Notes: a model not told the origin generated them from the letters alone. DNA of 64,000 nucleotides from an uncultured bacterium (GCA_965603355.1 CBFDCQ010000001.1:42350-106349); one strand, 5' to 3'; positions 10,946 through 42,706 are shown, numbered from the stretch's first letter. Numbers and translations: made by a program.

Positions 10946-11035
10946 ACACCGCACGGAGGTTCTTGGTAAGATTATTGGTTCAATTGAGAGGATGCGCGCC
11001 GCATGGGCGGCGCGCCAAGAAGGGAGGTACCTGGA

Positions 11036-21482: not shown

Positions 21483-21774
21483 CAACTCGACGTCGAGAAC
21501 CCCGTTGGGGGGATTGGGAGGGTCCAAATAGCTTCTCCGTTATCCAGAGCGGACGCCTACCGTGGAGAACGCTGTGGGGCAAGCTGATGATGGAGTCCGG
21601 CAGTCTCAGTACAGCCCGCGATGAATTCAGTACGCACTCGGCGCGTGGCAAGCGCAAAGAACAGTCATTTCCGCAAGAGTGCGCTTCTTCGAGAGATCTC
21701 TTTCTTGCATCGCGATTCCCGCGTGATCTTCTGATGATCGGTCGAGGGACGATACAGAATTGAGGAGAATAGCC

Positions 21775-24315
21775 ATGACGAGGGGGATACCGTTCAGCGT
21801 CCGTTTTGTTCCTGCGATTTCCGTTCTGATGCTGGTTATATTGTCGCTTGGCGTTGCCGAAGCTCAGGAACCTCCGGCCAAGTGGACGTTCATGGTTTAC
21901 ATGGACGGGGACAACAACCTTGAAACGGACGCTATCCAGGACTTCCTCGAGATGGCGCAGGTCGGCTCGAGTGACGACATTGACATAGTGGTTCTTTTCG
22001 ACCGAATAGACGGGTATGACTGGACCCACGGGGACTGGACCGCCGCGAGGTTGTTCCATATAGAGCAGAACGAGCTGCCTGAGGCCACCGAGGGGGTCAG
22101 TTGGGGAGAAGTTAACATGGGGGACCCGCAGACGCTGGTCCAGTTTGTTACTTCGGCGGCGGCAGACTACCCGGCCGACAACTATGCACTTGTGCTGTGG
22201 AACCATGGAGGCGGGTGGCGTAACCGCGCAGAGCAAAAAGCGGGAAACGCACCTTTCAAAGACGTATGCTGGGACGATACGAGCATGGACGTCCTTCATA
22301 CGTATGAACTCCGACAAGCCCTCGAGGAAATCCAGACGACCGTGGGCACGATCGACCTCATCGGGTTCGACGCCTGTCTGATGGCGATGCTCGAGGTCGC
22401 GTACGAGCTCCGGAATCACGGCGATGTTATGGTTGCGTCCGAAGAGGTTGAACCGGTTGCCGGTTGGGCGTACGACGACGTGCTCCGCGACCTTGCCGCT
22501 GACCCGCTGATGACGGCAGCCCAGCTGGGACAAGTTATAGTGAACCGGTACGCCCAAGAGATGGCGTGGTTCTCAGGACACACAGTTTCCACGATCGACC
22601 TCAGCGAGGTACAGGATCTCGCTGACCGGGTGGACACGCTTGCGGAAACGCTCAGCGCTCACTGGGAGGACGATCAGGACGCAGTCAAAAGCGCGGCAAC
22701 TGATGTAATGACCCAGGTCGAGCAGACGGTCATTCACGAGCTCCACGGAAGCTCGTCGCCGGGCAGCCACGGTCTGGCGATCTACTTCCCTGAAGTGCAG
22801 TACATGTTCGACCCGAGCTACACTGGAACGACGATCTTGTTCGCGCTGGACACGCAATGGGACGATTTTCTCTCGAGCTTTTACGGTACGATGCAGCGCT
22901 CATGGGTGAGAACCGCAAGAGTCCTTGCGCAATTCTACGAGTGCCTGTACTACGAGCATGTCGACCTGTACGATTTCTGCTCTCAGCTCGTGAACTACGC
23001 TCCACCGACCATCGAGTACGAGGAGTCGCTCGTCACAAACGAGTTCATCGGGGGCGGCGAGCCACAATTATGGTGCGACGATGAGTGGTGCTGGCGTTAC
23101 GTTCTCCCCTTTCCGTTCCCGTTCTTTGGGGAGGAGGAAACAGCCGTATGGATTTGCTCCAACGGATACCTCGATTTCACAAGCAGTGAGTCTGAATGGG
23201 TAAACTGGGCTCGTGGATTAGTCGAGAATAAGCGCATTGCACCATTATGGACGGACCTTGATACGACGTCTTGGGGTGATATTTACATTCATCAGCCTAC
23301 ACCGGACTCGGTCTGCATTCGTTGGGAAACGGAGGAATATGGTGCCTTCGGTCTCGTCAACGTGGAGGTTGTGCTTTACCGCAACGGGACTATCAAGTTC
23401 AACTATGGGTCTGACAACACGACTCTGGGCGAATCGTTCGTCTGGACGTGGGGTGCCTACTGGGCGCCAACCATAGGGCTCTCAAACGGCGATGGCCTTA
23501 ATATGCACTATTCCGAGTACGACTCCCGCTCCAATCTAACAGGAGTCGACACCGTGGTATGGACGCCCCCTATAGTGGATTCAGATGGCGACGGTCTGCT
23601 CGACTCGGTGGAAACCAACACTGGCGTGTACGTCGACGAGAACGACACCGGCACGGATCCTGACGAGCCGGACACCGACGGCGACGGTCTTACCGATTGG
23701 GATGAGGTGCACACTTATCCCTGCGACCCGAACGACGCGGACACCGACAACGACGACCTTGAGGACGGCGAGGAGATTAACACGCACGGGACCGACCCGG
23801 ACGACGACGACTCGGACGACGACACTTACACTGACGGAGAGGAAGTCGCAGCGAACACGGACCCTCTTGACGCGAGTTCGATGCCTTCCGGCAGACGCGC
23901 CGCGCCACCGCCGCCGCCGCCCGCACCGGTACGTGGTCATCACAGCGACAGCGGAATAGAAAAGCTGAATCCGTGCTTCATCGCCACGGCGGCGTACGGC
24001 ACACCGACGGCCGACCAGGTGCGCACGCTCCTAGAGTTCAGGGACACTTATCTGTTGACCAACCGCGCAGGTTGCGCTCTTGTGAGAACATACTATAGGC
24101 TAAGTCCACCGGTGGCAAGATTCATAGAAGGTTGGCCGTCAGGCAAGAAGCTGGTACGCGCCGCTCTGACACCGGTTGTCCTGGTGGCACGCGTGGCACT
24201 CAATTCACCAGTCGCTTGCGCGGCAGCCTTCGCGGCGGCGGTCGCGCTGTCCTTCTCGCTGACGGCATTCCCGGTTTCGCGCGTCCGGCGCCGGCGACGT
24301 ATACGACGCAGTTGA
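21775..24315 (+). CDS. secreted clostripain-like cysteine peptidase (C11 family) with Ca-binding TSP3-like repeats and a C-terminal CFIATAAYG sorting-like domain
   Basis: RBS GAGGAG before the ATG at 21775. Signal peptide. C11 hallmarks: FMVYMDGDNNLE, catalytic His in LVLWNHGGGW and catalytic Cys in IGFDACLMAM. Aspartate-rich DxDxDG repeats (DSDGDGLLD, DTDGDGLTDWDE, DADTDNDDLEDGEE). The C-terminus has PCFIATAAYGTP...LLEFRDTYLL, then a hydrophobic helix and RRRRRIRRS. Confidence 0.8.
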   Translation: MTRGIPFSVRFVPAISVLMLVILSLGVAEAQEPPAKWTFMVYMDGDNNLETDAIQDFLEMAQVGSSDDIDIVVLFDRIDGYDWTHGDWTAARLFHIEQNELPEATEGVSWGEVNMGDPQTLVQFVTSAAADYPADNYALVLWNHGGGWRNRAEQKAGNAPFKDVCWDDTSMDVLHTYELRQALEEIQTTVGTIDLIGFDACLMAMLEVAYELRNHGDVMVASEEVEPVAGWAYDDVLRDLAADPLMTAAQLGQVIVNRYAQEMAWFSGHTVSTIDLSEVQDLADRVDTLAETLSAHWEDDQDAVKSAATDVMTQVEQTVIHELHGSSSPGSHGLAIYFPEVQYMFDPSYTGTTILFALDTQWDDFLSSFYGTMQRSWVRTARVLAQFYECLYYEHVDLYDFCSQLVNYAPPTIEYEESLVTNEFIGGGEPQLWCDDEWCWRYVLPFPFPFFGEEETAVWICSNGYLDFTSSESEWVNWARGLVENKRIAPLWTDLDTTSWGDIYIHQPTPDSVCIRWETEEYGAFGLVNVEVVLYRNGTIKFNYGSDNTTLGESFVWTWGAYWAPTIGLSNGDGLNMHYSEYDSRSNLTGVDTVVWTPPIVDSDGDGLLDSVETNTGVYVDENDTGTDPDEPDTDGDGLTDWDEVHTYPCDPNDADTDNDDLEDGEEINTHGTDPDDDDSDDDTYTDGEEVAANTDPLDASSMPSGRRAAPPPPPPAPVRGHHSDSGIEKLNPCFIATAAYGTPTADQVRTLLEFRDTYLLTNRAGCALVRTYYRLSPPVARFIEGWPSGKKLVRAALTPVVLVARVALNSPVACAAAFAAAVALSFSLTAFPVSRVRRRRRIRRS

Positions 24316-24598: not shown

Positions 24599-26536
24599 AT
24601 GAGACTTGCGCTCGTTAGAATGTCCCTCCGCGCGAAGCTGGTGGCAAGCTTCCTCATCGTCGTGCTGATTACCGGGACTACCGCGATATTGGTGGGCGTC
24701 AGCCTAATCGCCAACGGCGTCATCAGGCAAGCTGAAGATAACGTGCGTCTCGATCTGAACTCGGCCCGCGAGGTCTATCAGGAAAGAGTACGCCAAATCG
24801 ACACCGTCCTGCATTTCACTGCGATCCGTTCCGTCATGGTGCGAGACGCGCTCATCAACAAAGACAGAAAGACACTTGGAACGACGCTCGAAGAAGTGCG
24901 GCAGGCCAGTGCGATGGACATCCTGACCATAACCGACGGTGAAGGGCGCGTCCTCCATCGATGTCAAAACCCTCAGGTTTATGCTGATGATCTAAGCCAA
25001 GACGAGTTCGTGAAACGGGTCCTGCGCGACCGGGAATGTGCAATGGGAACCACCCTTGTGCCCGCAGAGCAACTGGTGAAAGAGAGCCCGGAACTCGCGG
25101 AACGAGCGCGGGTCAAGTTCGTCCAAACCGAGAAGGCGAAACCCAGACCTGGAACTGAAGAGACGACAGGTATGATGATGAAAGCGGCAGTCCCCATCTT
25201 TGGCGACAGCGGCGATGTTGTGGGGGTGCTTTATGGCGGAGACCTGCTCAACAAGGATAACGAGATCGTGGACCGGGTCAAAGCCATCGTGTATCGGGGC
25301 GAACGGTACAAGGGCAAAGAGACCGGTACCACGACGATCTTCCAGGGAGACTTGCGCATATCCACTAACGTCAGGAACGATGACGGTAAGCGGGCGATTG
25401 GAACGCGGGTGTCGGCGGAAGTCAACGATACCGTGCTCGTGAAAGGTTTGCCCTGGGTCGGGCGGGCGTTCGTCGTGAACGACTGGTACATCGCGGCGTA
25501 CGAGCCGATACGGAACGTAAACGACGAGATCATCGGTATGCTCTATGTCGGTGTGCTCGAAGAGAAGTTCGCGGACATGAAGAAGAGGACGCTGTGGATA
25601 TTTGTAGGCATAACGATAGCGGGCGCGGTGGCCGCTCTGGCGGTGTCGTACCTGCTTGAGCTGAGCATTCTTAAGCCGATCAGGGAACTGGCCCGAGGCG
25701 CCCATGAGCTCGCCGGAGGAAATCTCGAGTACCGGGTTAAAACGGCCTCAAAAGACGAGATGGGTGAACTGGGGAAAACATTCAACCTCATGGCCGAGAG
25801 CATCAAACAAAGGGACAGGGAGCTTAAAGATAGGACGCGGATGATGGTCGAATCGAAGCGGCTGGCAACGCTCGGCCAGCTCGCCGCCGGCGTGGCTCAC
25901 GAGATAAACAACCCGCTCGGAGGCATATTGGTGTACGCACATCTTCTGCTCGAAGACACGGGCATCGACGATCCCAGACGCGAGAATATGTCGAGGATCG
26001 TTAGGGAGACCACCAGGTGCCGTGACATAGTGAGGAACCTGCTCGATTTTTCGCGGCAAACCAGCCCCCGAGTCGAGGAGGCGGATATTAACGGAATAGT
26101 CGAAGAGGCGCTCGCTATGACGGTCCAGCGGCCGCGGTTCAGGGACGTCAGAGTCGAGTTGGACTTGTGCAGGACGCTGCCGCATGTTATGGTAGATGTA
26201 TCGCAGATCGAACAGGTCTTCAGGAATATCATTCAGAATGCCGCCGAAGCTATGGACGGTGAAGGCAGCATAAGCGTGAGCAGCAGGCTGTCCCGTGAGG
26301 ATGGCATGGTGGAAGTCTCGATAAGCGATACGGGACCAGGCATAGAGATCGAGCATATGGAAAGGTTGTTTGACCCGTTCTTCACCACCAAGGAGGTGGG
26401 GCACGGTACGGGTCTTGGTCTCGCTGTCAGTTATGGTATAGTGGAGAGGCACGGGGGGCGAATCAAGGTCGAGAGCGAGCCGGGAGCAGGTGCTGGTTTT
26501 ATCGTGCAGCTGCCTGTCAAACAGGGGGGTAAGTAG
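24599..26536 (+). CDS. sensor histidine kinase (periplasmic or Cache-like sensor, HAMP, HisKA, HATPase_c)
   Basis: TM1 LVASFLIVVLITGTTAILVGVSL, a roughly 280 aa extracytoplasmic domain, TM2, HAMP (LKPIRELARGAHELAGGNLEYRV), H-box LAAGVAHEINNPLGGI, N-box QNAAEAM, and G-boxes DTGPGI and GTGLGLAV. Confidence 0.85.
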   Translation: MRLALVRMSLRAKLVASFLIVVLITGTTAILVGVSLIANGVIRQAEDNVRLDLNSAREVYQERVRQIDTVLHFTAIRSVMVRDALINKDRKTLGTTLEEVRQASAMDILTITDGEGRVLHRCQNPQVYADDLSQDEFVKRVLRDRECAMGTTLVPAEQLVKESPELAERARVKFVQTEKAKPRPGTEETTGMMMKAAVPIFGDSGDVVGVLYGGDLLNKDNEIVDRVKAIVYRGERYKGKETGTTTIFQGDLRISTNVRNDDGKRAIGTRVSAEVNDTVLVKGLPWVGRAFVVNDWYIAAYEPIRNVNDEIIGMLYVGVLEEKFADMKKRTLWIFVGITIAGAVAALAVSYLLELSILKPIRELARGAHELAGGNLEYRVKTASKDEMGELGKTFNLMAESIKQRDRELKDRTRMMVESKRLATLGQLAAGVAHEINNPLGGILVYAHLLLEDTGIDDPRRENMSRIVRETTRCRDIVRNLLDFSRQTSPRVEEADINGIVEEALAMTVQRPRFRDVRVELDLCRTLPHVMVDVSQIEQVFRNIIQNAAEAMDGEGSISVSSRLSREDGMVEVSISDTGPGIEIEHMERLFDPFFTTKEVGHGTGLGLAVSYGIVERHGGRIKVESEPGAGAGFIVQLPVKQGGK

Positions 26537-27898
26537 ATGTCAGCATCGTTTTCTATCCTTGTAGTAGATGATGAGGAGGTTATGCGCGACTGTTGCGTGC
26601 AGATCCTGTCCCGAGACGGATGCCGCGTTGAGGTGGCCCACGACGGACTTTCCGGGCTTGAGAGAATAAGGAAGGAGCCGTTTGACGTAGTCATACTGGA
26701 TTGGAAAATGCCGGGCCTGAACGGACTGGACCTGCTTGACCGGATCGCGCAAACAAGCGCGGATACTGTTGTGATAGTAATGACGGGTTACGCTTCAGTC
26801 GAATTTGCAGTAGAGGCAATGAGGCACGGCGCGTACGACTTCATACCGAAACCGTTCCCGCCACGGGTACTTCGCGGGATAGTGGCGCGCGCTCTGGAAA
26901 AGCGCGGCTTCGCCAGGGATACGGTTTGTCCACCGAGCGAGCTTGAGACGTTGCGCGGCGTAGACTCTCTTGTTGGAGAGAGCGTCGTCATGAAAGCTAC
27001 AAAACAGCTCGTTAAACGCGCCGCTGCCACCGACAGTACTGTGCTGATCGCCGGCGAGAGCGGTACGGGCAAGGAACTGGTTGCGCGCGCACTGCACCAT
27101 CACAGTGCGCGCAGAGATGGTTCGTTTGTCACGGTCGATTCCGGCGGGTTGGTCGAGAACCTTATCGAGAGCGAACTCTTTGGTCACGTCAGAGGAGCTT
27201 TCACCGGGGCCACGTCTACTCGACAGGGCAGGTTCGAACTCGCTCATGGCGGAACACTGTTCCTGGATGACGTATCCACCCTTGGCTGGTCCGTCCAAGG
27301 AAAGCTCTTGCGCGCCTTACAGGAACGTGAGATTACAAGAGTCGGCAGCGGCCAGGTCATCAAGGTGGACGTGCGAATTATCGCCGCGACAAACAGCGAC
27401 CTGCTCTCCGACGTGGCCGCGGGAGGATTCAGAGAGGACCTTTTCTACCGGCTAAGTGTAATCCCGATCAATCTGCCGCCACTACGGGAGCGCAAGGAGG
27501 ATATTCCTCATCTCGCCAGCTTCTTCCTGAGAAAGTACAACGCCAAGCGTGCCGCAACCAAGGTCAGGAGCATCTCGGAAGAGGCGCTCAGGATGCTTGC
27601 TGACTACGATTGGCCCGGCAACGTGAGGGAGCTCGAAAATGTCATAGAGCGCGCGGTGGTAATGGCCGATAGCGAGACGGTCCGACCGCTCGACCTCGTC
27701 TGGCACCAGTTCTCATCCGCGGTTAGCCTCCGCGGCGCGCGGTCGGCCGGCGCGCGCCTTGAGGATATCGAAAAAGAACATATCAAGAGAACCTTGGCAA
27801 CGTTCAACAGGCACAAGGCCAAGACGGCTGACGCTCTCGGTATTGACCGCAAAACGCTCCGGAACAAGATGCGACGGTACAATATTGAGGAAGATTAG
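26537..27898 (+). CDS. sigma-54-dependent response regulator (NtrC family: REC, AAA+ sigma-54 activator, Fis-type HTH)
   Basis: REC segment ILVVDDEEVMRD...VILDWKMPGLNG, Walker A GESGTGKE, GAFTGA motif (RGAFTGATS), Walker B LFLDDV, and a C-terminal HTH (KTADALGIDRKTLRNKMRRY). Confidence 0.9.
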   Translation: MSASFSILVVDDEEVMRDCCVQILSRDGCRVEVAHDGLSGLERIRKEPFDVVILDWKMPGLNGLDLLDRIAQTSADTVVIVMTGYASVEFAVEAMRHGAYDFIPKPFPPRVLRGIVARALEKRGFARDTVCPPSELETLRGVDSLVGESVVMKATKQLVKRAAATDSTVLIAGESGTGKELVARALHHHSARRDGSFVTVDSGGLVENLIESELFGHVRGAFTGATSTRQGRFELAHGGTLFLDDVSTLGWSVQGKLLRALQEREITRVGSGQVIKVDVRIIAATNSDLLSDVAAGGFREDLFYRLSVIPINLPPLRERKEDIPHLASFFLRKYNAKRAATKVRSISEEALRMLADYDWPGNVRELENVIERAVVMADSETVRPLDLVWHQFSSAVSLRGARSAGARLEDIEKEHIKRTLATFNRHKAKTADALGIDRKTLRNKMRRYNIEED

Positions 27899-27913
27899 CC
27901 TTCTGGCGTAGCG

Positions 27914-27936
27914 TTTTTCCCCGCCAAGGGGAAAAA
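27914..27936 (+). promoter_or_regulatory. inverted repeat: candidate enhancer (UAS) for the NtrC-type activator, or a terminator hairpin
   Basis: TTTTTCCCC-gccaa-GGGGAAAAA (9-bp arms) lies 16 nt after the regulator stop and about 125-140 bp upstream of the sigma-54 -24/-12 element. Confidence 0.35.
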
Positions 27937-28056
27937 CTCCCCCAAAAACCTCCCCTTGTCAACCTTCGCAGGAAACTCATCCCGGGCATTGAGATCCGAC
28001 GTTAGGGCTTGTCCTGAGCCGATTTGGCCCGATGCCCACATTGCTCCAGCACCCTG

Positions 28057-28075
28057 CTGGCACAAAAAATGCTAA
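28057..28075 (+). promoter_or_regulatory. candidate sigma-54 (-24/-12) promoter
   Basis: cTGGCAC-aaaaa-aTGCt compared with the consensus TGGCAC-N5-TTGCW. The GG and GC are correctly spaced and sit about 55 nt upstream of the 28127 start. Confidence 0.5.
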
Positions 28076-28126
28076 TACTGATGAAACGAGAGGCCACAAG
28101 GACAGGATGCAAACGTTGGGGACCCA

Positions 28127-29278
28127 ATGGAGATTAGTGGTGCAACTGTCCTCGTCATTGACGACGAGGAATCGATGCGCGATTCCTGTTATCAGGCGCT
28201 GACGAAGGAGGGGTATCGTGTCGAGACGGCGGTGGACGCGGAGAGCGGCTTGCGCAAGGTGCGCGAGTTATCTCCCGACATCGTGCTCGTGGACCTCAAG
28301 ATGCCCCGCGTTGGTGGAACGGAAGTGTTGAAAGAGATAACCGCAATAGACCCGACGATCGTTGCAGTAGTGATCACGGGTTACGCAACGGTCGAATCGG
28401 CGGTCGAGGCCATGAAATGCGGCGCATACGATTTCCTTCCCAAACCTTTCACTCCGGACGAGCTCCGAATCGTCACGAAAAGAGGCCTGGAAAAGCGACG
28501 GCTGAGTGTCGAAATGGAGGCTCTTCGCAGGGAAAATGAGAGGATGAGAGAGAACTTCGTGACGGTTGTCACGCACGAAATGAGAGCGCCGCTGGTCGCG
28601 GTCGAACAGTACCTTGAAGTGATGCTGAAAGAGATGGCGGGCGATGTCACCGAGAAGCAGAAGGAGATACTCGAGCACAGTCGCAAACGAGTCGAGTGGC
28701 TGCTTACGCTGGTGAACGAATGGCTGAGCATGTCTCGCATCCAGCGGGGGAAAATAGTCGAGAGCCTCGAGACGGTAAAGATGCGGGAACTGCTCGAAGA
28801 ATCGGCCGCCCTGGTCAAGCCCCAAGCTGACGAGAAGGATATCAATATAGAGATCGAGGTGGCGAACGGAGCCGAGTCAATTGAAGGCGACATGGACGCT
28901 CTGAGCCACGTTTTCATGAATCTGGTGAGCAATGCGGTTAAGTACAACCACGAGGAAGGTTCTGTTTGCGTCAGAGCGATTGACAAGGACGATAGCATTG
29001 CCGTGGAGGTTGAGGACACGGGCGTGGGGATTCCCGAAGGTAGCTTGCCGTTCATTTTCGATGAGTTCTTCCGGGTAAAAACCGACGAAGGGCGGCGCGT
29101 GACGGGCACGGGTCTGGGATTAACGGTTGTCAAGAGGATTGTCGAGGCCCATCGCGGTCATGTGACCGTCAAGAGCGCTGTAGGACAAGGCACCACGTTT
29201 GTTGTGTTCTTACCGAAGAAGCAAACGATAGCGGAGCCGGGCATGGCAGAGAAGACCGGCAGCGTGAGTGAATCATAA
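28127..29278 (+). CDS. hybrid response-regulator/histidine kinase (REC, HisKA, HATPase_c) with no sensor or TM domain
   Basis: REC segment VLVIDDEESMRD...VLVDLKMPRVGG, a coiled coil, H-box VVTHEMRAPLVAVEQY, N-box NLVSNAVKYN, and G-boxes DTGVGI and GTGLGLTVV. Its stop overlaps the start of the next gene (TAATG). Confidence 0.85.
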   Translation: MEISGATVLVIDDEESMRDSCYQALTKEGYRVETAVDAESGLRKVRELSPDIVLVDLKMPRVGGTEVLKEITAIDPTIVAVVITGYATVESAVEAMKCGAYDFLPKPFTPDELRIVTKRGLEKRRLSVEMEALRRENERMRENFVTVVTHEMRAPLVAVEQYLEVMLKEMAGDVTEKQKEILEHSRKRVEWLLTLVNEWLSMSRIQRGKIVESLETVKMRELLEESAALVKPQADEKDINIEIEVANGAESIEGDMDALSHVFMNLVSNAVKYNHEEGSVCVRAIDKDDSIAVEVEDTGVGIPEGSLPFIFDEFFRVKTDEGRRVTGTGLGLTVVKRIVEAHRGHVTVKSAVGQGTTFVVFLPKKQTIAEPGMAEKTGSVSES

Positions 29279-30333
29279 TGAATACGCGGTTCATCTCTGA
29301 AGGCAATTTTGTCAGACTACTGGATCATCTGGCCGAACGCGGTCGAGTGTTCGTGGCGGAGCCGGTCGAGGACACCGGAAAGATAGCTTTTCGCGCCCGT
29401 CAAGAGGGTGAGGGTTTCGATTACACCGGTTTTCGCGCGACCCAGTCGCTCAAACCGTTCTTGTTTGTTGCGAGAGAGAAGGTGGCGGAATATCCCTGCG
29501 CGGCTGGGTCCGAGACGGTTCCTGCTGCGGAGCACGTGACCGTGGTAGGGGCGGCGGCGTGCGACCTTGCGGCGTTGAAGACCCTCGACGCAGTCTTCAT
29601 CTCTGAGGATTTTACGGACTGTTTCTATGCGGAGCGGAGGGCAAACACGCTGATCATCAGCATGGAGTGCACGGATCCACGCGACAGCTGTTTTTGCACG
29701 CTCATCGGCAATAAGCCGTATCCGGAAGCCGGATATGACCTGAACCTGGCGAAGGCCGGTGCCGGATATGTCGTCGAGGTGGGGTCCGAGAAGGGAGAAA
29801 GCCTCATCGGTGAACAGGCGTCTCTGTTTAAAGATGCCTCTAAGGAAACGCTCGCCGCGCGGGACAAGGCTCGCGAAGAGGCGGCGCGTCGAGTCGAGGA
29901 TATCAATCGCGGCGTTGAAGTGAGCAGGTCGCGACAAGAGATCCTGAAGCACGCTCCGGAAGATGAGGAATGGCACTCTCACGTGCAAACCTGCGTCGAG
30001 TGTGCAGCCTGCCTCTTCTGCTGTCCGACGTGTCACTGCTTCTTGCTTTACGACCAGAAGGGCGCGGAGAACTTCGAGCGGTTGAAGGTCTGGGACGCCT
30101 GTGTGTATGCAGGATACTCGCGCATGGCGGGTGGCGGGACGCCTAGAGCGTTTCTCGTGGAACGGTTCAGACACCGCTACGCGCACAAGTTCGACCAGAT
30201 TGTCGAGAGGCACGGTATTGAAGGTTGTTCGGGCTGCGGCAGGTGCATAGAAGCCTGTCCCGGCAACATTGACATGCGCAAAGTGTTCAAAGCCCTTGAC
30301 TCTGCGGCGTTAACCGAGAAGGTTGCGAGATGA
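29278..30333 (+). CDS. HydB/AsrA-like 4Fe-4S protein (sulfhydrogenase beta / anaerobic sulfite reductase A family)
   Basis: Cys clusters CVECAACLFCCPTCHCF and CSGCGRCIEACPG. The N-terminal 'ratio' domain and the 351 aa length fit HydB/AsrA-type subunits. Confidence 0.7.
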   Translation: MNTRFISEGNFVRLLDHLAERGRVFVAEPVEDTGKIAFRARQEGEGFDYTGFRATQSLKPFLFVAREKVAEYPCAAGSETVPAAEHVTVVGAAACDLAALKTLDAVFISEDFTDCFYAERRANTLIISMECTDPRDSCFCTLIGNKPYPEAGYDLNLAKAGAGYVVEVGSEKGESLIGEQASLFKDASKETLAARDKAREEAARRVEDINRGVEVSRSRQEILKHAPEDEEWHSHVQTCVECAACLFCCPTCHCFLLYDQKGAENFERLKVWDACVYAGYSRMAGGGTPRAFLVERFRHRYAHKFDQIVERHGIEGCSGCGRCIEACPGNIDMRKVFKALDSAALTEKVAR

Positions 30334-31145
30334 ACAATCTGTATTCCCCGATTCAGGCGCAAATCGAGGAAATCATAAAAGAGACGCCGACCAACAAGAC
30401 GTTCGTCATTCGGCCGGAAGCGCCGATACGTTTCAAGGCGGGCCAGTTCATGCAGCTCACGGTACCAGGCATGGGCGAGGCGCCGTTCACCCCCTCATCG
30501 TCGCCGGCCGTGACCGAGAAGATGGAGATCACCATACTCAAGACCGGCACGGTGACCGATGTGCTCCACACGATGCAAGCGGGAGATAACGTCGGATTGC
30601 GCGGCCCGTTCGGGAAAGGCTACCCGCTGGACAAGTTCGAGAACAAGGAGGTCCTGGTGGTCGGTGGCGGAGTGGGACTGGCCCCTCTGAGATCACTGAT
30701 TCTGGCTATGTTCGAGGATATGGGAAAGTATAAGCGGCTCTCGATAAAATATGGTGCGAAGACGCCGGAGGAGCTGCTTTTCAGGACGAGTTTCGACGAA
30801 TGGTCCAAGAAGCCGCAAACGGATCTTACCGTAACCATCGACGTTCCGGCGCCCGGATGGGAGGGCAAGGTAGGGCTCGTCACGAGCCTGCTGGACGATG
30901 TCGACGTGGACAAGCCCAACAGCTATGTCGTCTCCTGCGGGCCGGGCATCATGCTGCGGTTCGTGACGTATAAGCTTCTCGAAATCGGATTCGAGCCGGA
31001 ACAGATATACTTGTCGATGAACAGGAAAATGAGCTGCGGTGTCGGCAAGTGCGGCAGATGCGAGGTCGGACCGTACTATCTATGCAAAGACGGTCCGGAT
31101 ATGAACTACGCGAAGATTAAGGACGTGCCAAACGTTTTCAGTTGA
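30330..31145 (+). CDS. HydG/AsrB/PyrK-like FAD/NAD(P)H-binding oxidoreductase with a C-terminal [2Fe-2S] site
   Basis: FAD-binding barrel (RFKAGQFMQLTVPGMGEAPFTPSS), nucleotide-binding GGGVGLAPL, and a C-terminal C..CGVGKCGRCEV cluster motif. 4-nt overlap with the upstream gene. Confidence 0.8.
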   Translation: MNNLYSPIQAQIEEIIKETPTNKTFVIRPEAPIRFKAGQFMQLTVPGMGEAPFTPSSSPAVTEKMEITILKTGTVTDVLHTMQAGDNVGLRGPFGKGYPLDKFENKEVLVVGGGVGLAPLRSLILAMFEDMGKYKRLSIKYGAKTPEELLFRTSFDEWSKKPQTDLTVTIDVPAPGWEGKVGLVTSLLDDVDVDKPNSYVVSCGPGIMLRFVTYKLLEIGFEPEQIYLSMNRKMSCGVGKCGRCEVGPYYLCKDGPDMNYAKIKDVPNVFS

Positions 31146-31169
31146 GGGAACCTCGAACAGGTAGTTGAG

Positions 31170-32588
31170 ATGGTTGAGTCAAGAAAAAACATTTGCCTTC
31201 TCTGCTCGCTCGGTTGCGGCCTGATAGTTGATCTGGAATGCGACGAGCCGGTCAACCTCGAGTATGACACGGAAAATGGCGTGAACCGAGGCAAACTGTG
31301 CGCGAAAGGTAATTACATTCTGGAGCTGCTGAACGACCCCTTGCGTCTTGATGTGCCCAAGAAAGACGGCAAACCGATCAGGTGGGAACAGGCGGCAGAT
31401 GAGGTGGCGGATGCCCTGCGTGCCGTTCAGGGCGGCAAGACTGCGGCCGTCGTGCTCTCCGGTGATGCGTCGTGCGAGGACGTCGGGTTGGCCTTTGCGT
31501 TTGCAGCCGATTGCACCGGAGCCGGCAAAGCTGCGATAAGTCTCCCCACCGGCGACGATAAGGTGGTGTCAGCACTCGCGGAAACGTCCGGCGGCGTTGC
31601 GCAGGCCACTCTGGACGATGTCGAGAACTCCGTGTGCACGATCGCCGTGGGGGATCCGTTTGCCAGATGTCCCGTTATAGCCGGGAGAGTTCTTGCCGCG
31701 CGAAATGCGGCCCGCGAGAACTCTCTCAACGTGGTCTCTCGAGAGAGCAACATGACGTCGCGGTTCGCTGCGACCCACCTCCTTGGACCCGAGCGAGATA
31801 GCATGCTGGATCTTGTTGCCGCAGTGGTGGAGGCGCGGGGCGGCGCGAAGGAAAAGTGGTTGAATCAACTGGTCAAGGGCGTGGATGCCGGTTCGGACGC
31901 GCAGAAATTGGCGAAGAGCTTCGTTGAGTCCGAGCGGGCGGTAGTGGTGTTGTCCACGGACGATCCGGTGGTCGCACAACTGGCGAACGCTCTCGTCAAG
32001 GCTGCCGGCGACACGAAGGGACTTTTCGCGCTGCACGATTACGGTAACGCGCGCAGTATTGCGGAGATTTCATCCGGTGACGTTTCGGCCGAGGACGTGA
32101 TCAAGTCTGCGGCCCGTGGGGAGATAGAGGTTCTGCTCGTACTGGGGGCAGATCTCGTGTCGTCATATCCGAACCTGGATGTGAACGGAGCGCTGTCTGA
32201 AGTGCAACTGCTTGTTGCGGGAGCACCGTTTCCGAACAAGACGACATCTCTGGCCGGCATGGTTCTGCCGACTGCGCTGTGGATCGAGCAGGATGGCACG
32301 TTCAATGGTGCTCAATGCCAGCGGGTCGTCGCCCCACCTGGAGGTGCAATGTCGTATGGCGACATACTGAAGGCCGTCGCCAAAGCGACGGGCGTTGAGT
32401 TGCGTGCACACGAAGCGCCAGAAGCGCTCGCGGAAGCGGCCCTTGACGAGGGCAAGGCGGCGGCAATTGCTAAAGCGGCTCGCGAGGAGGCAGTGACATC
32501 ACCCGTCGTGTCGACGGCAACGTGTTTTGCGGACGGTTCCCTAACGGACAGAGTGAGTTGGGTTAAGATGGTAGAAAGAGTTCCGTGA
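31170..32588 (+). CDS. FdhA/NuoG-like molybdopterin-oxidoreductase-family protein, short form (472 aa)
   Basis: N-terminal 4Fe-4S motif CLLCSLGCGL...C-x3-C (CAKGNY) typical of the MopB Fe4S4 domain, then the start of a MopB-like domain (PIRWEQAADEVADAL). About 250 aa shorter than catalytic FdhH/FdhA. Confidence 0.6.
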   Translation: MVESRKNICLLCSLGCGLIVDLECDEPVNLEYDTENGVNRGKLCAKGNYILELLNDPLRLDVPKKDGKPIRWEQAADEVADALRAVQGGKTAAVVLSGDASCEDVGLAFAFAADCTGAGKAAISLPTGDDKVVSALAETSGGVAQATLDDVENSVCTIAVGDPFARCPVIAGRVLAARNAARENSLNVVSRESNMTSRFAATHLLGPERDSMLDLVAAVVEARGGAKEKWLNQLVKGVDAGSDAQKLAKSFVESERAVVVLSTDDPVVAQLANALVKAAGDTKGLFALHDYGNARSIAEISSGDVSAEDVIKSAARGEIEVLLVLGADLVSSYPNLDVNGALSEVQLLVAGAPFPNKTTSLAGMVLPTALWIEQDGTFNGAQCQRVVAPPGGAMSYGDILKAVAKATGVELRAHEAPEALAEAALDEGKAAAIAKAAREEAVTSPVVSTATCFADGSLTDRVSWVKMVERVP

Positions 32589-33077
32589 ATGAAGAAGCTG
32601 TTTGTAGATCTCGATCTCTGCATAGGATGTCAAGCACATAGCGTCGCCTGCAGTCGCGTAAACCACGACATCCTGACGATGCAGAGCGGCGAGATACCGG
32701 AGGAAGGCACGCTGCCTGTCGTGTGCAGACACTGCGAGACCGCCGCGTGCGTCGCTGCTTGTCCGAACGAGTCGATGAAGAAGCACGAGGACGGCATCGT
32801 TAGGAGAAACATGGCGACATGCACCGGCTGCATGAGCTGTACGCTGGCGTGCCCGTTCGGGACGCTGACTCGCGGCATGAGACTGGCCCGGCACTCGTCG
32901 AGCAAGTGCGACCTGTGCGCGCCGAGGGTAGAACGCGGGCTTGAACCCGCCTGCGTTGCGACGTGTCCCACAAGCGCGCTACAGTTTAGAGAGGTTGAAG
33001 AGGTCTACGAGGCGAAAGACGTTCTCGTGGTGGGAGCACATACAATCGGACATAGCCCGTACATAAGGAGAGCCTAG
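32589..33077 (+). CDS. HycB-like poly-ferredoxin (4x [4Fe-4S])
   Basis: CIGCQAHSVAC, CRHCETAACVAACP, CTGCMSCTLACP and CDLCAPR...CVATCP. Size and cysteine spacing match HycB/HyfA. The ATG overlaps the previous stop. Confidence 0.8.
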   Translation: MKKLFVDLDLCIGCQAHSVACSRVNHDILTMQSGEIPEEGTLPVVCRHCETAACVAACPNESMKKHEDGIVRRNMATCTGCMSCTLACPFGTLTRGMRLARHSSSKCDLCAPRVERGLEPACVATCPTSALQFREVEEVYEAKDVLVVGAHTIGHSPYIRRA

Positions 33078-33096
33078 CGGGAGAAGCCCGCGTGAA

Positions 33097-34035
33097 TTGG
33101 TGAGGATGATGAGTGCATTTGGCGTACCATATTTCCTGGCTGTGTTCGCCGTAACGGCTGTTGTAGGACTGGTGACGAGCTGGGTGGACAGAAAAGTCAC
33201 CGCGCGGGTGCAAGCGCGGGTTGGTCCGCCGTGGTTCCAACCGTTTGCGGATTTCGTGAAGCTGCTAGGCAAAGAGACGCTCGTGCCCGAAGGCAGCCGT
33301 CAGAAAGGCTTCCTCGTCGCGCCGCTGTTGGCACTCGTTGGCGTGTCGCTTGGCGCGGCGGCGCTCGTGTCAGGAGGTGTACTTGGCAAGGAAGGCTTTA
33401 TCGGAGACATAGTAGTTGTGCTGTACCTGCTCACGATACCGTCAGCGGCGCTGATACTCGGCGCGGCCTCGACCGGCAACCCTATGGCGTCTGTCGGGGC
33501 GAGTCGCGAGATGAAGCTCATACTCGCGTACGAGCTGCCGTTCCTTATCGTAGTGCTTACGGCCGTGTACAAAGCGCAGGCCGGTTTCATGATCGACAAG
33601 ATCGTGGACTACCAGGCTCAGAACGGCGCGTTCATATGGAGCATTTCGGGAGTCATCGGGTTCATCGTTGCGATACTGTGCATTCAGGGCAAGCTGGGGT
33701 TGGTGCCGTTTGACGCGCCGGAGGCTGAGCAGGAGTTGATGGGCGGTGTTCTTACAGAGTACTCCGGCGTCCCGCTGGCGCTGTTCAAGCTCAGCAAAGC
33801 GATGATGCTGAGCGTTCTGACAGTCTTTCTGGCGGTCATATTCTTTGGCGGAATGCAATTCAAGGGCATCGATATCCTGTGGAGTATCTTGAAGTATCTC
33901 GTGCCGGTAGTGCTGGTGGTCTTGATCAGAAACACGAACCCGAGGTTGAGGATTGACCAGATAATGAAGCTGTTCTGGGGTCCGCTTACGGTGCTGGCCC
34001 TGATCGCTCTGTTGCTGGCAAGGTTCAACCTCTGA
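33097..34035 (+). CDS. membrane subunit NuoH/HycD/MbhM-like
   Basis: Polytopic membrane protein, 312 aa, with a conserved NuoH-like segment (GLVPFDAPEAEQELMGGVLTEYSG). Confidence 0.85.
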   Translation: MVRMMSAFGVPYFLAVFAVTAVVGLVTSWVDRKVTARVQARVGPPWFQPFADFVKLLGKETLVPEGSRQKGFLVAPLLALVGVSLGAAALVSGGVLGKEGFIGDIVVVLYLLTIPSAALILGAASTGNPMASVGASREMKLILAYELPFLIVVLTAVYKAQAGFMIDKIVDYQAQNGAFIWSISGVIGFIVAILCIQGKLGLVPFDAPEAEQELMGGVLTEYSGVPLALFKLSKAMMLSVLTVFLAVIFFGGMQFKGIDILWSILKYLVPVVLVVLIRNTNPRLRIDQIMKLFWGPLTVLALIALLLARFNL

Positions 34036-34055
34036 TCTTTATGGAGTGAAGCGTT

Positions 34056-34487
34056 ATGAGCGTTAAGATGTGGGGACTGAAGAAGTCGCCCTGGGTGTAC
34101 CACGTAGCGCTGTCACCCTGCAATAACTGCGACATAGAGATACTCGACCTGCTGACTCCGAGATTCGATGTGGAACGTTTTGGAATAAAGCTCGTGGGCA
34201 GTCCCAGACACGCTGACGCCCTGCTTGTTACCGGATCCGTAAACCGGCACGTTCTCCCCAGGTTTGTCGAGCTATACAAGCAGACGGCGAAACCGTGCGT
34301 GGTGTTCGCGATAGGCTCCTGCGGTCTGTCATCGACTATGTTCAGAGATAACTACAACATCGTCGGCCCCATTGACAAGGTCGTGAGACAGATCGATCCT
34401 AACGCCATCATCGCGTACGTGCCGGGATGTCCGCCAAAACCGGAGGCGATGATCTCCGGAGTGGTCAAGGCGCTGAGCGTGTTATAG
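34056..34487 (+). CDS. [NiFe]-hydrogenase small subunit, NuoB-like (HycG/MbhJ/EchC-type)
   Basis: SPCNNCDIE (compare HycG SCNGCEIE), GSCG and GCPPKPE provide the four Cys of the proximal [4Fe-4S]. Confidence 0.85.
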   Translation: MSVKMWGLKKSPWVYHVALSPCNNCDIEILDLLTPRFDVERFGIKLVGSPRHADALLVTGSVNRHVLPRFVELYKQTAKPCVVFAIGSCGLSSTMFRDNYNIVGPIDKVVRQIDPNAIIAYVPGCPPKPEAMISGVVKALSVL

Positions 34488-34499
34488 GAGAGGTGAAGT

Positions 34500-34955
34500 A
34501 TGAGTGGTAGCGTCGCGCTGACAGCGGTCAAAGAGAGCATGCCGGCAAAGATTTTGGAAATCGTGGAGAGATCTCCCGCGCGCGCATACGTATACATTGC
34601 GCCGGAGGAGATAGTCGCAGCGTCGCGGTTCATGTTCGAGGAGTGCGGTGTGCGGCTCGCCACGGTGTCCGGTGTAGACACGAGGAGCGGCATCGAGCTG
34701 GTTTACCATTGGATGAGCGCGAAGGACCATCAGTTCATCATGATCAAGACAAAAGTCAAGAAACCGTTCCCGGAAATAGACTCGGTCGGCTCGTTTCTGC
34801 CGGCGGCGGTTTGGATTGAGAGGGAAATCCACGACATTCTGGGTGTGGTTTTCAGAGGGCACCCTGATTTCAGGAAACTCATTCTTTCAGATGATTGGCC
34901 TGAGGGAATCCACCCCTATAAGCGCGGCGTGAGATTCGGGGAGTTTAAGGCATGA
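34500..34955 (+). CDS. NuoC-like subunit (MbhK/EchD-type)
   Basis: 151 aa NuoC/30-kDa-subunit fold (LVYHWMSAKDH...WIEREIHDILGVVFRGHPD). Overlaps the large-subunit gene by 4 nt. Confidence 0.8.
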   Translation: MSGSVALTAVKESMPAKILEIVERSPARAYVYIAPEEIVAASRFMFEECGVRLATVSGVDTRSGIELVYHWMSAKDHQFIMIKTKVKKPFPEIDSVGSFLPAAVWIEREIHDILGVVFRGHPDFRKLILSDDWPEGIHPYKRGVRFGEFKA

Positions 34956-36184
34956 AAAGGACGATAGTACCGCTCGGCCCGTTTCACCCTCTGCTGGAGG
35001 AGGCGGAGCATTTTCAGCTTTACGTCGAGGGTGAAACTGTCGTTGACATAGACATGCGCATCGGCTACATGCACCGTGGAATTGAGAAGATGAGCCAGTA
35101 CAAGACGTTCGACCAAGTACCTTTCACCGTCGAGCGCATCTGCGGCATCTGCTCCACCTCCCACCCGATAGCCTATGTGAACGCCGTGGAGGACCTCGCG
35201 GGAATAGAGATCCCAGAGAGAGCGAAGTATATCAGGAACATCGTCGCCGAGCTTGAACGGTTGCATAGTCACATGTTATGGGTGGGACTCGCCGGTCACT
35301 TCATCGGGTACGATACGGTGTTCATGTGGGCCTGGAAATATCGGGAGCCGATTCTCGACATCTTCGAGCTAATAAGCGGCAATCGCAACCATTATGCTAT
35401 GATGAAGCCCGGCGGTGTCAGACGCGACATCAAGGAGGAGGATTTCCCTGCGATAATCTCGATGCTCGACACGCTGGCTAAGGGCAATGAGCTTTTCACC
35501 GGCGCGGTCGTGGATGACCCGGTAATTCACGCGAGGACAAAAGGCGTCGGAATCCTGAGTAAGGAGGATGCGATTTCCTACGGTACTGTCGGGCCCACTG
35601 TGCGAGGTTCGGACATATCTGATGATATTCGGACGGATGACCCGTACGCGGGTTACGACCTGGTCGATTGGGACGTGATCACGTACGAGGGAGGAGACGT
35701 GTTCGCCAAAGCGGCAGTAAGGTTGCTGGAGAACTTCGAGTCGATCAAGATCATAAGGCAAAGCCTCGAGAAGATGCCGCCCGGACCGATTGAGACGGAA
35801 GTCAGGGAAATACCGCCCGGCGAGGGCGTCGGTCACGCGGAAGCGCCGCGCGGCGAGGTGTTCCATTATGTGCGCAGCGACGGGTCGGCCTGTCCCGTGC
35901 GACACAAGATTCGCGCGCCAAGCTTCGTGAACATACCGTCGTTCAAAGCTACCTGCATCGGCGAGACTATAGCCGATGTCGCTCTTATCACGGCTTCGGT
36001 TGACCCGTGCTATTGCTGCACCGAACGGATGGCGGTGGTTGACCGACAAACTGAGGACGTTCTCATGTCCGGCGAAGAGTTGGTGCGCATGAGCCGGGAG
36101 AAGACCAAAGAGATCAAGGAGGGGCTTGGGCAGGAAACGCCCATTGACAAGCTTGCCCGTAAACTGCAGAGAGGAGAGTTGTAG
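34952..36184 (+). CDS. [NiFe]-hydrogenase large subunit, group 4 (NuoD-like; MbhL/EchE/HycE-type)
   Basis: N-terminal Ni-Fe ligand motif RICGICSTSH and C-terminal DPCYCCTER (DPCxxCxxR), both intact. 410 aa. Confidence 0.9.
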   Translation: MKRTIVPLGPFHPLLEEAEHFQLYVEGETVVDIDMRIGYMHRGIEKMSQYKTFDQVPFTVERICGICSTSHPIAYVNAVEDLAGIEIPERAKYIRNIVAELERLHSHMLWVGLAGHFIGYDTVFMWAWKYREPILDIFELISGNRNHYAMMKPGGVRRDIKEEDFPAIISMLDTLAKGNELFTGAVVDDPVIHARTKGVGILSKEDAISYGTVGPTVRGSDISDDIRTDDPYAGYDLVDWDVITYEGGDVFAKAAVRLLENFESIKIIRQSLEKMPPGPIETEVREIPPGEGVGHAEAPRGEVFHYVRSDGSACPVRHKIRAPSFVNIPSFKATCIGETIADVALITASVDPCYCCTERMAVVDRQTEDVLMSGEELVRMSREKTKEIKEGLGQETPIDKLARKLQRGEL

Positions 36185-36234
36185 GGGCGGTCGCCTCTGG
36201 CGACCTGCGCCCTCGCGAGGGTGGAACAAATAGA

Positions 36235-38064
36235 ATGAACTTGCTCCTTTATCCGATACTGGTTCCGCTTGCGGGCGGACTGTTGGCGCTACTGATGCCG
36301 CGTGCGCTCAAGGGGTTGAGAGAGCTGGTCTGCATTGTGGCGACCGGCGCGACAGTCTACCACGCCGCGCAGATAGTGAGGATAAGCAGCCTCGGCGAGC
36401 GCCTTGACTTCTCACGTCCCTGGTTGAGCATAGAGAACTTCGTGTTCTCGATTAGCCTGCGCGCGGACGCGCTTAGCCGGTTCATCGTCCTGGCTGCCTC
36501 CATATTCGGGCTGCTAATTGTCCTGTACTCCATAGGATATATGAGGAACAAGGACAGGCTCCCCGAGTATTACGCTTACATTGTCTGGACAGTCGCCGCG
36601 GCTAACGCCGCATTGCTGGCGGATAACCTCATACTGCTGCTCGTTTCGTGGGAAGTGGTCACCGTGCTGCTGTTCTTCCTAATCACGATAGCCGGCGAAG
36701 GGTCGCCGCCGGCCGCCGGGAAGACTTTTGTAATGATCGGTGCGGCGGACTGCGCCATGCTGCTCGGAATAGTCCTCATTTGGCGGGTGATGGGCACTCT
36801 CGAGATCAGTGCATTGAGACACGTACCGATGCAGACCGGTATGATGCATCTGATTTACGCGCTTCTGCTTGCCGGGGCAATTACAAAAGCGGGCGCTATG
36901 CCGGGCCATTCCTGGATACCGAAAGCGGCGGAGATTGCGCCGACATCTGTCATGGCGTTTCTGCCGGCGGCGCTCGACAAGCTGCTCGGCATCTATCTGC
37001 TCGCCCGCATGTCGCTATACATGTTCGCGCCCAGCGAGGCAATGAAGCTGGCGCTGCTTATCATAGGCGCTGTCACTATCATATTGGCAGTGATGGCGGC
37101 CCTCGTGCAACACGAGCTCAAGAAGCTTCTGTCCTGTCACGCAGTAAGCCAGGTCGGCTACATGGTAATGGGTATCGGAACCGGCGTCCCGCTCGGCATC
37201 ATTGGCGGCCTTTTCCACATGTTGAACAACGCAATCTACAAATGTTGCCTGTTCCTGACCGCCGGCGCCGTCGAACGTAAAGCGGGTACCACTGAGCTTG
37301 AGAAGCTCGGTGGACTTGCCTCGGCAATGCCCGTCACGTTCGGCGCATGCGTGATCGCGGCGTTAGCCATCTCCGGAGTGCCGCCGCTCAATGGGTTCGC
37401 GTCCAAATGGTTCGTCTACCAGGGGGTGCTCCAGGTTGGTCGTCCGGTGTTCGTCGTGGCGGCGATGTTCGGCAGCGCGCTGACGCTTGCGTCGTTTATA
37501 AAGGTCATCTATTCGGTGTTCCTCGGCAAGCGCCCGGAATCGCTCCGTTCCATCAAGCCGGTAGGTTTCTCGATGACTTTTCCGATGATCTTCCTCGCGC
37601 TATTGTGCATAGTATTCGGTGTATTCTACCATCTACCAGTCAAACAGTTCATAGCCCCCGCGCTCGGAAGTCAGGCGCTGGTATTACCGCAACTTGGATT
37701 GTGGGACTCGACTCTTGCTACCGGGCTGATCGTTATTGGGCTCGTGATCGGGATCATCATCTATCTGTTTGGGACGGCCTTCAAAGGGCGCACCACGTCT
37801 ATCTTCGTGGGCGGCGAGACACTGGACGAGGAAGAGAGCCGCGTACCTGGCACGGGCTTTTACGAGACGGTAACCTCCATGCGCGGTCTCGGCACGATCT
37901 ATCGGGACGCGGAACAGGGTGCGTACGACCTGTACGTGCTTGGGGCACGGTACGGACAGAAGATCGTTGACGTGTTCAGGGGAATGCATACGGGTATAGT
38001 GTCGACGTACGTCGCTTTTTGCGTGGCTGGACTTGGCATAATACTGTTCTTACTGTTGAGGTAA
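36235..38064 (+). CDS. Mrp/NuoL-family antiporter-like subunit (MrpA/MbhH-like), 609 aa
   Basis: About 16 TM helices and conserved NuoL/MrpA segments (WEVVTVLLFFLI, HAVSQVGYMVMGIG). Confidence 0.85.
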   Translation: MNLLLYPILVPLAGGLLALLMPRALKGLRELVCIVATGATVYHAAQIVRISSLGERLDFSRPWLSIENFVFSISLRADALSRFIVLAASIFGLLIVLYSIGYMRNKDRLPEYYAYIVWTVAAANAALLADNLILLLVSWEVVTVLLFFLITIAGEGSPPAAGKTFVMIGAADCAMLLGIVLIWRVMGTLEISALRHVPMQTGMMHLIYALLLAGAITKAGAMPGHSWIPKAAEIAPTSVMAFLPAALDKLLGIYLLARMSLYMFAPSEAMKLALLIIGAVTIILAVMAALVQHELKKLLSCHAVSQVGYMVMGIGTGVPLGIIGGLFHMLNNAIYKCCLFLTAGAVERKAGTTELEKLGGLASAMPVTFGACVIAALAISGVPPLNGFASKWFVYQGVLQVGRPVFVVAAMFGSALTLASFIKVIYSVFLGKRPESLRSIKPVGFSMTFPMIFLALLCIVFGVFYHLPVKQFIAPALGSQALVLPQLGLWDSTLATGLIVIGLVIGIIIYLFGTAFKGRTTSIFVGGETLDEEESRVPGTGFYETVTSMRGLGTIYRDAEQGAYDLYVLGARYGQKIVDVFRGMHTGIVSTYVAFCVAGLGIILFLLLR

Positions 38065-38072
38065 CGCAGACC

Positions 38073-39033: not shown

Positions 39034-39040
39034 GGAAGCG

Positions 39041-40881: not shown

Positions 40882-40897
40882 AACGAGGTTAGACCTG

Positions 40898-41998: not shown

Positions 41999-42001
41999 CA
42001 T

Positions 42002-42613: not shown

Positions 42614-42706
42614 CGGCGTCTCGTTCTCGATCGAATGGAGTTGTGCGGGAAAACCATCGGCGGTTCTTTCCGCAGGGAGTTTTGCAGCCAAGAGGGGGTG
42701 TTTGAA

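Follow-up and report, generated by a model that had tools for sequence, protein, structure and literature searches.

A candidate sigma-54 enhancer and promoter region for a group 4 [NiFe]-hydrogenase operon, downstream of an NtrC-type activator gene, in an uncultured bacterium

Results

Gene content of the hydrogenase locus

The window, by which we mean the whole 64,000-nucleotide stretch of DNA from an uncultured bacterium analysed here, part of a JGI metagenome contig (3300007900, Ga0111031_1087145), carries a sensor histidine kinase gene, an NtrC-type activator gene and a long run of hydrogenase-related genes on the plus strand (Table 1). The stop codon of the kinase gene adjoins the start codon of the activator gene, and this Cache/HAMP kinase is presumed to be the partner of the activator; its orthologues, at 51–61% identity, lie 5' of the activator in most matched loci (e.g. 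L002, L005, L016, L021 and L062). The Sigma54_activat domain of the activator was detected in Pfam with an E-value of 1.9e-65, and its ESELFGH and GAFTGA motifs start at 27167 and 27194, respectively. It is the sole gene of that type, no second sigma-54 activator gene being found in the window, and according to the domain searches it encodes the only protein of the cluster with a DNA-binding domain, a Fis-type HTH (approximately residues 400–453) in which the segment LGIDRKTL is kept in 26 orthologues. A gap of 228 bp (27899–28126) separates its TAG stop codon (27896–27898) from the next ATG (28127).

That ATG begins the gene of a hybrid kinase in which Pfam detected neither a sensor domain nor a DNA-binding domain, and whose homologues in 160 related loci (42–82% identity) are located inside or adjoining hydrogenase clusters. 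The genes that follow overlap or abut. The first part encodes a HydB-like and HydG-like NAD(P)H module, a short FdhH-like protein and a HycB-like ferredoxin; the middle encodes NuoH/B/C-like subunits and then the [NiFe] large subunit, with both CxxC ligand motifs (RICGICSTSH and DPCYCCTERM); and the end encodes Mbh/Mrp antiporter subunits, a ferredoxin and a stand-alone receiver (42635–43105). The gene after these (43146–45236) is on the minus strand. The region 28127–43105 is a single operon of approximately 15 kb for an Mrp/Mbh-type group 4 [NiFe]-hydrogenase.

The FdhH-like protein (31170–32588) is only 472 aa long, has Fe4S4 and Molybdopterin domains and no Molydop_binding domain, and scored 98.5 against an Fdh-alpha cut-off of 666; the L002 version is full-length (688 aa). 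The 472-aa protein may be a NuoG-like, non-catalytic electron-transfer subunit. The hybrid kinase and the stand-alone receiver are conserved companions of the regulatory module in the relatives, and the operon-encoded pair of a kinase without a sensor and a terminal receiver has the appearance of a conserved branch for phosphorelay or feedback. One to three additional receiver proteins adjoin the hybrid kinase in L002, L033 and L048.

Directly upstream of the sensor kinase gene, an 851-aa ORF (21760–24315) encodes a secreted-looking protein with an acidic repeat region of the DxDxDG type and, at its C-terminus, a hydrophobic anchor with an arginine run behind it; the protein appears to have no relation to the regulatory module. 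Between the ORF that ends at 10889 and the one that begins at 11003, a short gap contains two more perfect inverted repeats (10914–10934 and 10994–11015; AGACGTCCCG/CGGGACGTCT and GCGCGCCGC with a 4-nt loop), which may be terminators or operators.

Table 1. Features of the regulatory region and the hydrogenase operon, in window coordinates
Feature	Position	Strand	Basis
Sensor histidine kinase (dCache/sCache_3 - HAMP - HisKA - HATPase_c)	24599–26536	+	Pfam
NtrC-type bacterial enhancer-binding protein, 453 aa	26537–27898	+	Response_reg, Sigma54_activat, AAA_lid_14, HTH_8 (Pfam)
Candidate distal enhancer site GTAGCGTTTTTCCCC, degenerate, 6/8 key bases	27908–27922		spacing, relatives
Palindrome of the original prediction, TTTTTCCCC-GCCAA-GGGGAAAAA; putatively the half-sites that face each other in the two enhancer sites	27914–27936		
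Candidate proximal enhancer site GGGGAAAAACTCCCC, GGGG-N7-CCCC, 8/8 key bases	27928–27942		motif, spacing, conservation
Putative sigma-54 −24/−12 element TGGCACAAAAAATGCT	28058–28073	+	one mismatch to consensus
Shine–Dalgarno-like GGGGA, then ATG of the first operon gene	28118–28129	+	conservation
Receiver-HisKA-HATPase hybrid kinase, 383 aa, first operon gene	28127–29278	+	Pfam
Remaining operon genes, overlapping or abutting	29278–43105	+	Pfam, NCBIfam

Related loci in other lineages

Two scans with the hybrid kinase as query yielded the 160 loci used for comparison, 80 from species-representative genomes (42–58% identity) and the other 80 from metagenomes; the phylum labels, taken from the deposited MAG records, include Latescibacterota, Planctomycetota, Aminicenantes, Acidobacteriota, Aerophobetes and others. 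The closest relatives are the metagenome loci L082–L085, with 78–82% protein identity. Complete MAG chromosomes are among the carriers of the module (e.g. CP070728.1 for L002 and CP070825.1 for L043). The gene order of the window is common to L001, L003 and L008 up to the NuoC-like gene, where the fetched stretch ends. In other phyla, the same regulatory genes accompany other hydrogenase-type clusters. The cluster of L048 consists of HydB, HydG and both a small and a large subunit, the latter with a weak match to the HycI maturation protease in its C-terminal region, and its hydrogenase looks, from this subunit set, like a group 3b enzyme; L002 has its full-length formate-dehydrogenase-like gene alongside HydB/HydG-like genes.

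The putative sigma-54 promoter element

The −24/−12 element reads TGGCAC-AAAAA-ATGCT, with GG (28059–28060) and GC (28071–28072) 10 nt apart, and its lone mismatch to TGGCAC-N5-TTGCW is an A for T at −15, so that the one-mismatch element of the original prediction was recovered on reading the sequence. It is intergenic, starting 160 nt 3' of the activator stop codon and 69 nt 5' of the ATG at 28127, and the GAFTGA-bearing activator is encoded immediately upstream of it. By the usual 12-nt rule, transcription is predicted to start near 28084; counted from this predicted start, a 43-nt leader stands ahead of the conserved GGGGA Shine–Dalgarno sequence. The Shine–Dalgarno and ATG segment (TGGGGAcCCaATGG) is kept in L082–L084 despite diverged flanks.

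The orthologous activator is in range in 25 loci, at 52–59% identity where its gene is covered in full length, and 22 of these loci have a −24/−12 element after the activator stop codon, counting elements with ≤2 mismatches, intact GG and GC, and a position within 450 nt of the stop; the background for such elements at ≤2 mismatches is 0.11 per kb per strand. In eight loci of different phyla, the element starts 155–161 nt after the activator stop, as it does at 160 nt in the window, and orthologous elements are also present in L082–L085. A weight matrix built only from the 22 orthologous promoters, the window excluded, ranked 28058 first of approximately 128,000 window positions, the runner-up lying inside an ORF. 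Its score of 12.4 bits is below those of all 22 training promoters (14.8–30.0 bits, inflated by self-training). This lowest score of the family is explained by the A at −15; all the closest relatives have TTGC at this place, versus ATGC in the window. No sigma-70-like promoter was found by scanning 27500–28500, and no RpoN box was found in the six-frame translation of the window.

Candidate enhancer sites and the palindrome

The perfect inverted repeat reported earlier, with 9-bp arms and a 5-nt spacer (TTTTTCCCC, 27914–27922; GCCAA, 27923–27927; GGGGAAAAA, 27928–27936), is likewise present, and G27913 and C27937 lengthen it to a 10-bp stem; its centre at 27925 is 134 nt upstream of the promoter GG. 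What the relatives share, just 3' of the activator stop codon, is a 15-bp GGGG-N7-CCCC motif with an A/T-rich centre, often occurring twice, 21 bp apart. The consensus of 49 non-redundant sites is TGGGGAaaAATtCCCCA, and in the information profile the maximum lies on the proximal 15-mer, A/T-rich interior included, whereas the distal right half differs between lineages (CCCC, GAAC or ACA) and the inter-site spacer carries no information.

The proximal site, the window's single exact GGGG-N7-CCCC, begins 130 nt 5' of TGGCAC, and L083 has an identical 15-mer at the equivalent place. At the other near matches to this motif in the window (184, 19283, 42842 and 58012), no acceptable −24/−12 element was found at the right distance. 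The distal site starts 150 nt upstream of TGGCAC, and its left half reads GTAG versus GGGG; full distal sites are present in the closest relatives (GGGGAACTTCTCCCC in L083, GGGGCGCTTTTCCCC in L084 and GGGGCAATTCTCCCC in L082), which have paired full or near-full sites (8/8 and 7–8/8 key bases) 20–21 bp apart. The window sites are 20 bp apart from centre to centre, 21 bp being usual in the relatives. On these comparisons, an activator dimer would most plausibly bind at the proximal site. Between enhancer and promoter, no IHF-like site (WATCAANNNNTTR, ≤2 mismatches) was found.

In many Aminicenantes-type loci (L025, L050, L096 and L145-like loci), the distal position reads (T/A)GGAAAT-N-TGGAAC or TGTCAAAATTGAACA, which another factor may bind, or which may represent half-sites in a diverged arrangement.

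Spacing and conservation across loci

In an unbiased scan of every sigma-54-like site on both strands of the 160 loci, GGGG-N7-CCCC (≤1 mismatch) occurred 120–160 nt upstream of 68 distinct sites. The spacings form two sharp peaks, at 124–131 nt (mode 128–129) and 146–152 nt (mode 149), over a background outside 120–160 nt of 0–4 matches per 10-nt bin in most bins. Because the window fits both peaks, with spacings of 130 and 150 nt, the palindrome is best read as the inner half-sites of two adjacent sites, the right half of the distal one and the left half of the proximal one, and not as the binding unit itself; tandem palindromic sites with the half-site GGGGAAA would produce such an inverted repeat automatically. 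The original prediction had thus placed the enhancer correctly and misjudged its register, the conserved unit being GGGG-N7-CCCC at the proximal site, with a weaker copy at the distal site. The near-fixed spacing in turn suggests a stereospecific loop.

Pairwise, the 15-mer is 75% identical, versus 30% for the neighbouring loop DNA, and clustering at ≤50% loop identity divides the sites into 26 groups; the conservation of the enhancer is more than shared ancestry. In the four-sequence alignment with the closest relatives, only three islands are conserved, namely the enhancer, the −24/−12 element, and the Shine–Dalgarno sequence with the ATG.

Aminicenantes-type loci contain a second enhancer–promoter unit, at a distance of approximately 5 kb from the gene of the activator; the two units together suggest a small regulon and not a single promoter. 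The paired units are at 612 and 5577 in L038, 535 and 5575 in L053, and 588 and 5575 in L055, each with a spacing of 128–130 nt; one follows the activator gene and leads into hydrogenase genes, and the other precedes receiver–receiver–hybrid-kinase genes. In L015 (5402–5416) and L040 (5405–5440), the enhancer sites lie within the 3' end of the activator ORF because the promoter is only approximately 90 nt after the activator stop, and the non-conserved C-terminal tail of these activators (…LGNNSP…) is the translated enhancer. Insertions of short tandem repeats into the control region were also seen in two loci. L009 has approximately five copies of GATAAGATCCGATTCTGGC at 1600–1720, between the activator stop and the enhancer, and an enhancer–promoter distance of 115 nt, somewhat below the usual 124–131 nt; in L161, GGCAAAAGGAAAAAGG-type repeats flank the promoter on both sides (approximately 1330–1500).

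Chance level within the window

Within the window, sigma-54 matches with ≤1 mismatch numbered 3 versus 1.8 expected, the other two falling on coding sequence, one within an ORF at 6716 and one across a start codon at 8241, and exact GGGG-N7-CCCC numbered 1 versus 1.0 expected. Perfect inverted repeats with arms of ≥9 bp and loops of 3–12 nt gave eight position hits (five distinct), compared with 2.8 on average and at most 8 in Markov simulations; this particular palindrome occurs once, with 0.02 expected. On window counts alone, neither the promoter match nor the enhancer match is rarer than chance, and the case therefore rests on context and comparison.

RNA folding and terminators

As RNA, the palindrome would fold into a G+C-rich hairpin with a 10-bp stem and a 5-nt loop (−16.1 kcal/mol, z = −4.0). 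No U-tract was found 3' of the hairpin, where ACTCCCCCAAAAACC comes next, no terminator was called by scanning 27500–28500, and no known RNA family was matched in Rfam at E ≤ 1 in 27700–28300. In L002, L015 and L083, the only calls of the terminator scan were weak ones on the palindromic enhancer sites. Folding revealed in many relatives a hairpin followed by a T-run, 10–35 nt upstream of −24 and separate from the GGGG/CCCC motif, which is probably the terminator of the kinase–activator transcript; folding of the window revealed no counterpart of it. Such elements were seen in L002 (approximately 5000–5050), L005, L022, L118, L015 and L040 (approximately 5500–5540), L016 and L084, with examples reading CCACTTAGG..CCTAAGTGG-TTTTTTT and CCACCCGG..CGGGTGG-TTTTTTT. 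The stem of L002 is imperfect and was missed by the simple terminator scan.

Discussion

We consider it highly probable, on the conserved elements and their setting, that the 228-bp gap is a complete sigma-54 control region, with enhancer sites and a promoter for the hydrogenase operon. Phylogenetic footprinting over the 160 loci supports the earlier proposal that an enhancer and a sigma-54 promoter here form the control point of the hydrogenase locus, with the refinement that the first gene behind the promoter is the receiver–histidine-kinase hybrid, the hydrogenase genes following in the same operon.

The original prediction had also allowed that the hairpin terminates the activator transcript. 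An action on RNA, in which TTTTTCCCC-N5-GGGGAAAAA would terminate the kinase–activator transcript or protect its 3' end, with or without enhancer function, agrees with a stable 10-bp stem only 16 nt after the activator stop codon; moreover, no other terminator-like element stands between activator gene and promoter in the window, and the hairpin and T-run in this gap of the relatives lead one to expect some 3'-end signal here as well. We nevertheless regard this explanation as unlikely, because no T-run follows the palindrome and many relatives have a separate hairpin and T-run by the promoter, distinct from the GGGG/CCCC motif. The motif also keeps its distance to the promoter and not to the stop codon: it does so even inside the activator ORF (L015 and L040), and it precedes the second sigma-54 promoters approximately 5 kb from any activator gene (L038, L053 and L055). 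With the absent T-run, the empty scan and this tracking of the promoter, the reading of the palindrome as the activator-transcript terminator is not supported. Since the window has no separate hairpin and T-run, the palindrome may have a minor role at the RNA level, or transcription may read through; with no canonical kinase–activator terminator seen, read-through from upstream could also express the operon.

Taking the palindrome as an enhancer in its original register, an activator dimer would bind the inward CCCC and GGGG across the 5–6-bp spacer. This arrangement has the most perfect symmetry in the window, with arms of 9–10 bp, and in Planctomycetota- and Latescibacterota-type loci both CCCC and GGGG around a 5–6-bp spacer are fairly well kept. 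However, many loci (e.g. L013, L035, L038, L053 and L055) have a single GGGG-N7-CCCC with no CCCC 5–6 bp upstream, and it is the whole proximal 15-mer that is conserved, its A/T-rich interior included, and not the variable distal right half or the spacer; we hold this register to be quite improbable. Both matches might instead have arisen by chance in GC-rich intergenic DNA, and transcription of the operon might depend on a sigma-70-type promoter that escaped recognition, or on read-through out of the regulator genes. The window-only counts, which do not exceed expectation, and the departure of the promoter from consensus at −15 speak for such an account, but both motifs with their 130-nt spacing recur in approximately 70 loci, forming at least 26 sequence-independent clusters in which the surrounding DNA cannot be aligned, and 27500–28500 holds no sigma-70-like site, which makes coincidence a very remote prospect.

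Returning to the sigma-54 control region, we infer its binding and looping steps, its start site, its phosphorylation logic and its feedback from established knowledge of NtrC-type systems, and the following sequence of events is proposed on that basis. The Cache/HAMP kinase may sense a signal and phosphorylate the receiver domain of the activator. Activator dimers would then bind the proximal and distal sites, centred near −147 and −167 relative to the predicted start, and the bound dimers would form an active AAA+ ring. Looping of the DNA could bring this ring into contact with a closed complex of sigma-54 RNA polymerase at TGGCAC-N5-ATGCT, after which ATP hydrolysis would open the promoter, with transcription beginning near 28084. 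The transcript would encode the hybrid kinase, the NAD(P)H-type HydBG-like module, the Mrp/Mbh-type group 4 [NiFe]-hydrogenase and the stand-alone receiver, and a feedback on the system by the hybrid kinase and the receiver is probable. The scheme starts from direct observations, namely the sequence elements, the domain content of the proteins, and the conservation of the elements and of their spacing across relatives.

More tentatively, and with somewhat less than an even chance in our judgement, the locus may be one instance of a regulon spanning several phyla, in which a Cache-kinase/NtrC-type pair acts through TGGGGAA-N3-TTCCCCA enhancers 128 and 149 nt from sigma-54 promoters and switches on differing [NiFe]-hydrogenases. 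The targets would apparently be group 4 Mrp/Mbh-type enzymes here and four-subunit group 3b-like enzymes elsewhere, and every operon may also encode a receiver–kinase hybrid and stand-alone receivers. If so, a stereospecific loop, possibly bent by a protein, would follow from the rigid spacing, and a built-in feedback or a second input from the operon-encoded kinase. The locus offers a concrete regulatory model for energy-converting hydrogenases in lineages represented only by metagenomes, comprising a sensor kinase, an activator, an enhancer motif and a promoter. The signature of GGGG-N7-CCCC approximately 128 nt upstream of GG-N10-GC could be used for finding regulon members in MAGs, and motif and spacing together could be used in heterologous reporters to find the signal sensed by the Cache domain. 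The enhancer motif, the 15-mers in a relevant context, the fixed spacing and the module in these phyla were not found in the open-access literature. The mechanism itself is an ordinary type of switch and brings nothing new to sigma-54 biology.

The arrangement resembles NtrB/NtrC and glnAp2 of enteric bacteria in its histidine kinase and receiver–AAA+–HTH_8 activator. The enteric system has a pair of neighbouring inverted-repeat sites for dimers over 100 bp 5' of a GG-N10-GC promoter, and the window has candidates for such a pair, the distal one degenerate. At glnAp2, NtrC oligomerises, loops the DNA and drives promoter opening with ATP. The NtrC site is TGCACC-N5-GGTGCA, unlike the TGGGGAA-N3-TTCCCCA of the window, where moreover a Cache/HAMP kinase serves as the sensor and a hydrogenase operon as the target. 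The activator is not an NtrC equivalog because its score against the NCBIfam NtrC model (405.5) is under the cut-off of 558.6. More generally, neither the kinase nor the activator reached the cut-off of any NCBIfam equivalog model searched (for the activator, NtrC, AtoC, ZraR and FhlA), AtoS and AtoC being nearest. The likeness to AtoC covers the full length of the activator (423.7 bits, residues 1–451), and that to AtoS the kinase core. These best models were rejected as names for the pair, the scores being far below the cut-offs (714 and 646), and the context in the window is a hydrogenase operon as opposed to the acetoacetate metabolism of AtoS/AtoC.

In Cupriavidus necator, the NtrC-family response regulator HoxA activates sigma-54-dependent [NiFe]-hydrogenase operon promoters (PMC4377017). 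The window resembles this HoxJ/HoxA system, with its SH and MBH promoters, in combining an NtrC-family regulator, sigma-54 and [NiFe]-hydrogenase operons, and its activator is likened to HoxA at the family level only. The enzymes differ, being of the group 4 Mrp/Mbh type in the window and of a group 3b-like, four-gene HydB/HydG/small/large set in relatives, versus uptake and NAD-reducing hydrogenases in C. necator. In the HoxJ/HoxA system, the signal comes from a regulatory hydrogenase, whereas the window encodes none. Formate hydrogenlyase in Gammaproteobacteria is under the control of sigma-54 and an NtrC-family regulator (PMC12316311). The FhlA-hyc/hyp system of Escherichia coli shares with the window a sigma-54-dependent group 4 [NiFe]-hydrogenase operon with an upstream activating sequence. 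FhlA is a one-component activator that binds formate and has a GAF domain, whereas the activator of the window has an N-terminal receiver domain and a partner kinase. As a candidate FhlA, the activator scored 292.8 bits against a cut-off of 830, over residues 144–452 only (AAA+ and HTH), and this name was rejected. The NtrC/glnAp2-type architecture found here is thus of a known kind, and sigma-54 control of hydrogenases has precedents in HoxA and FhlA.
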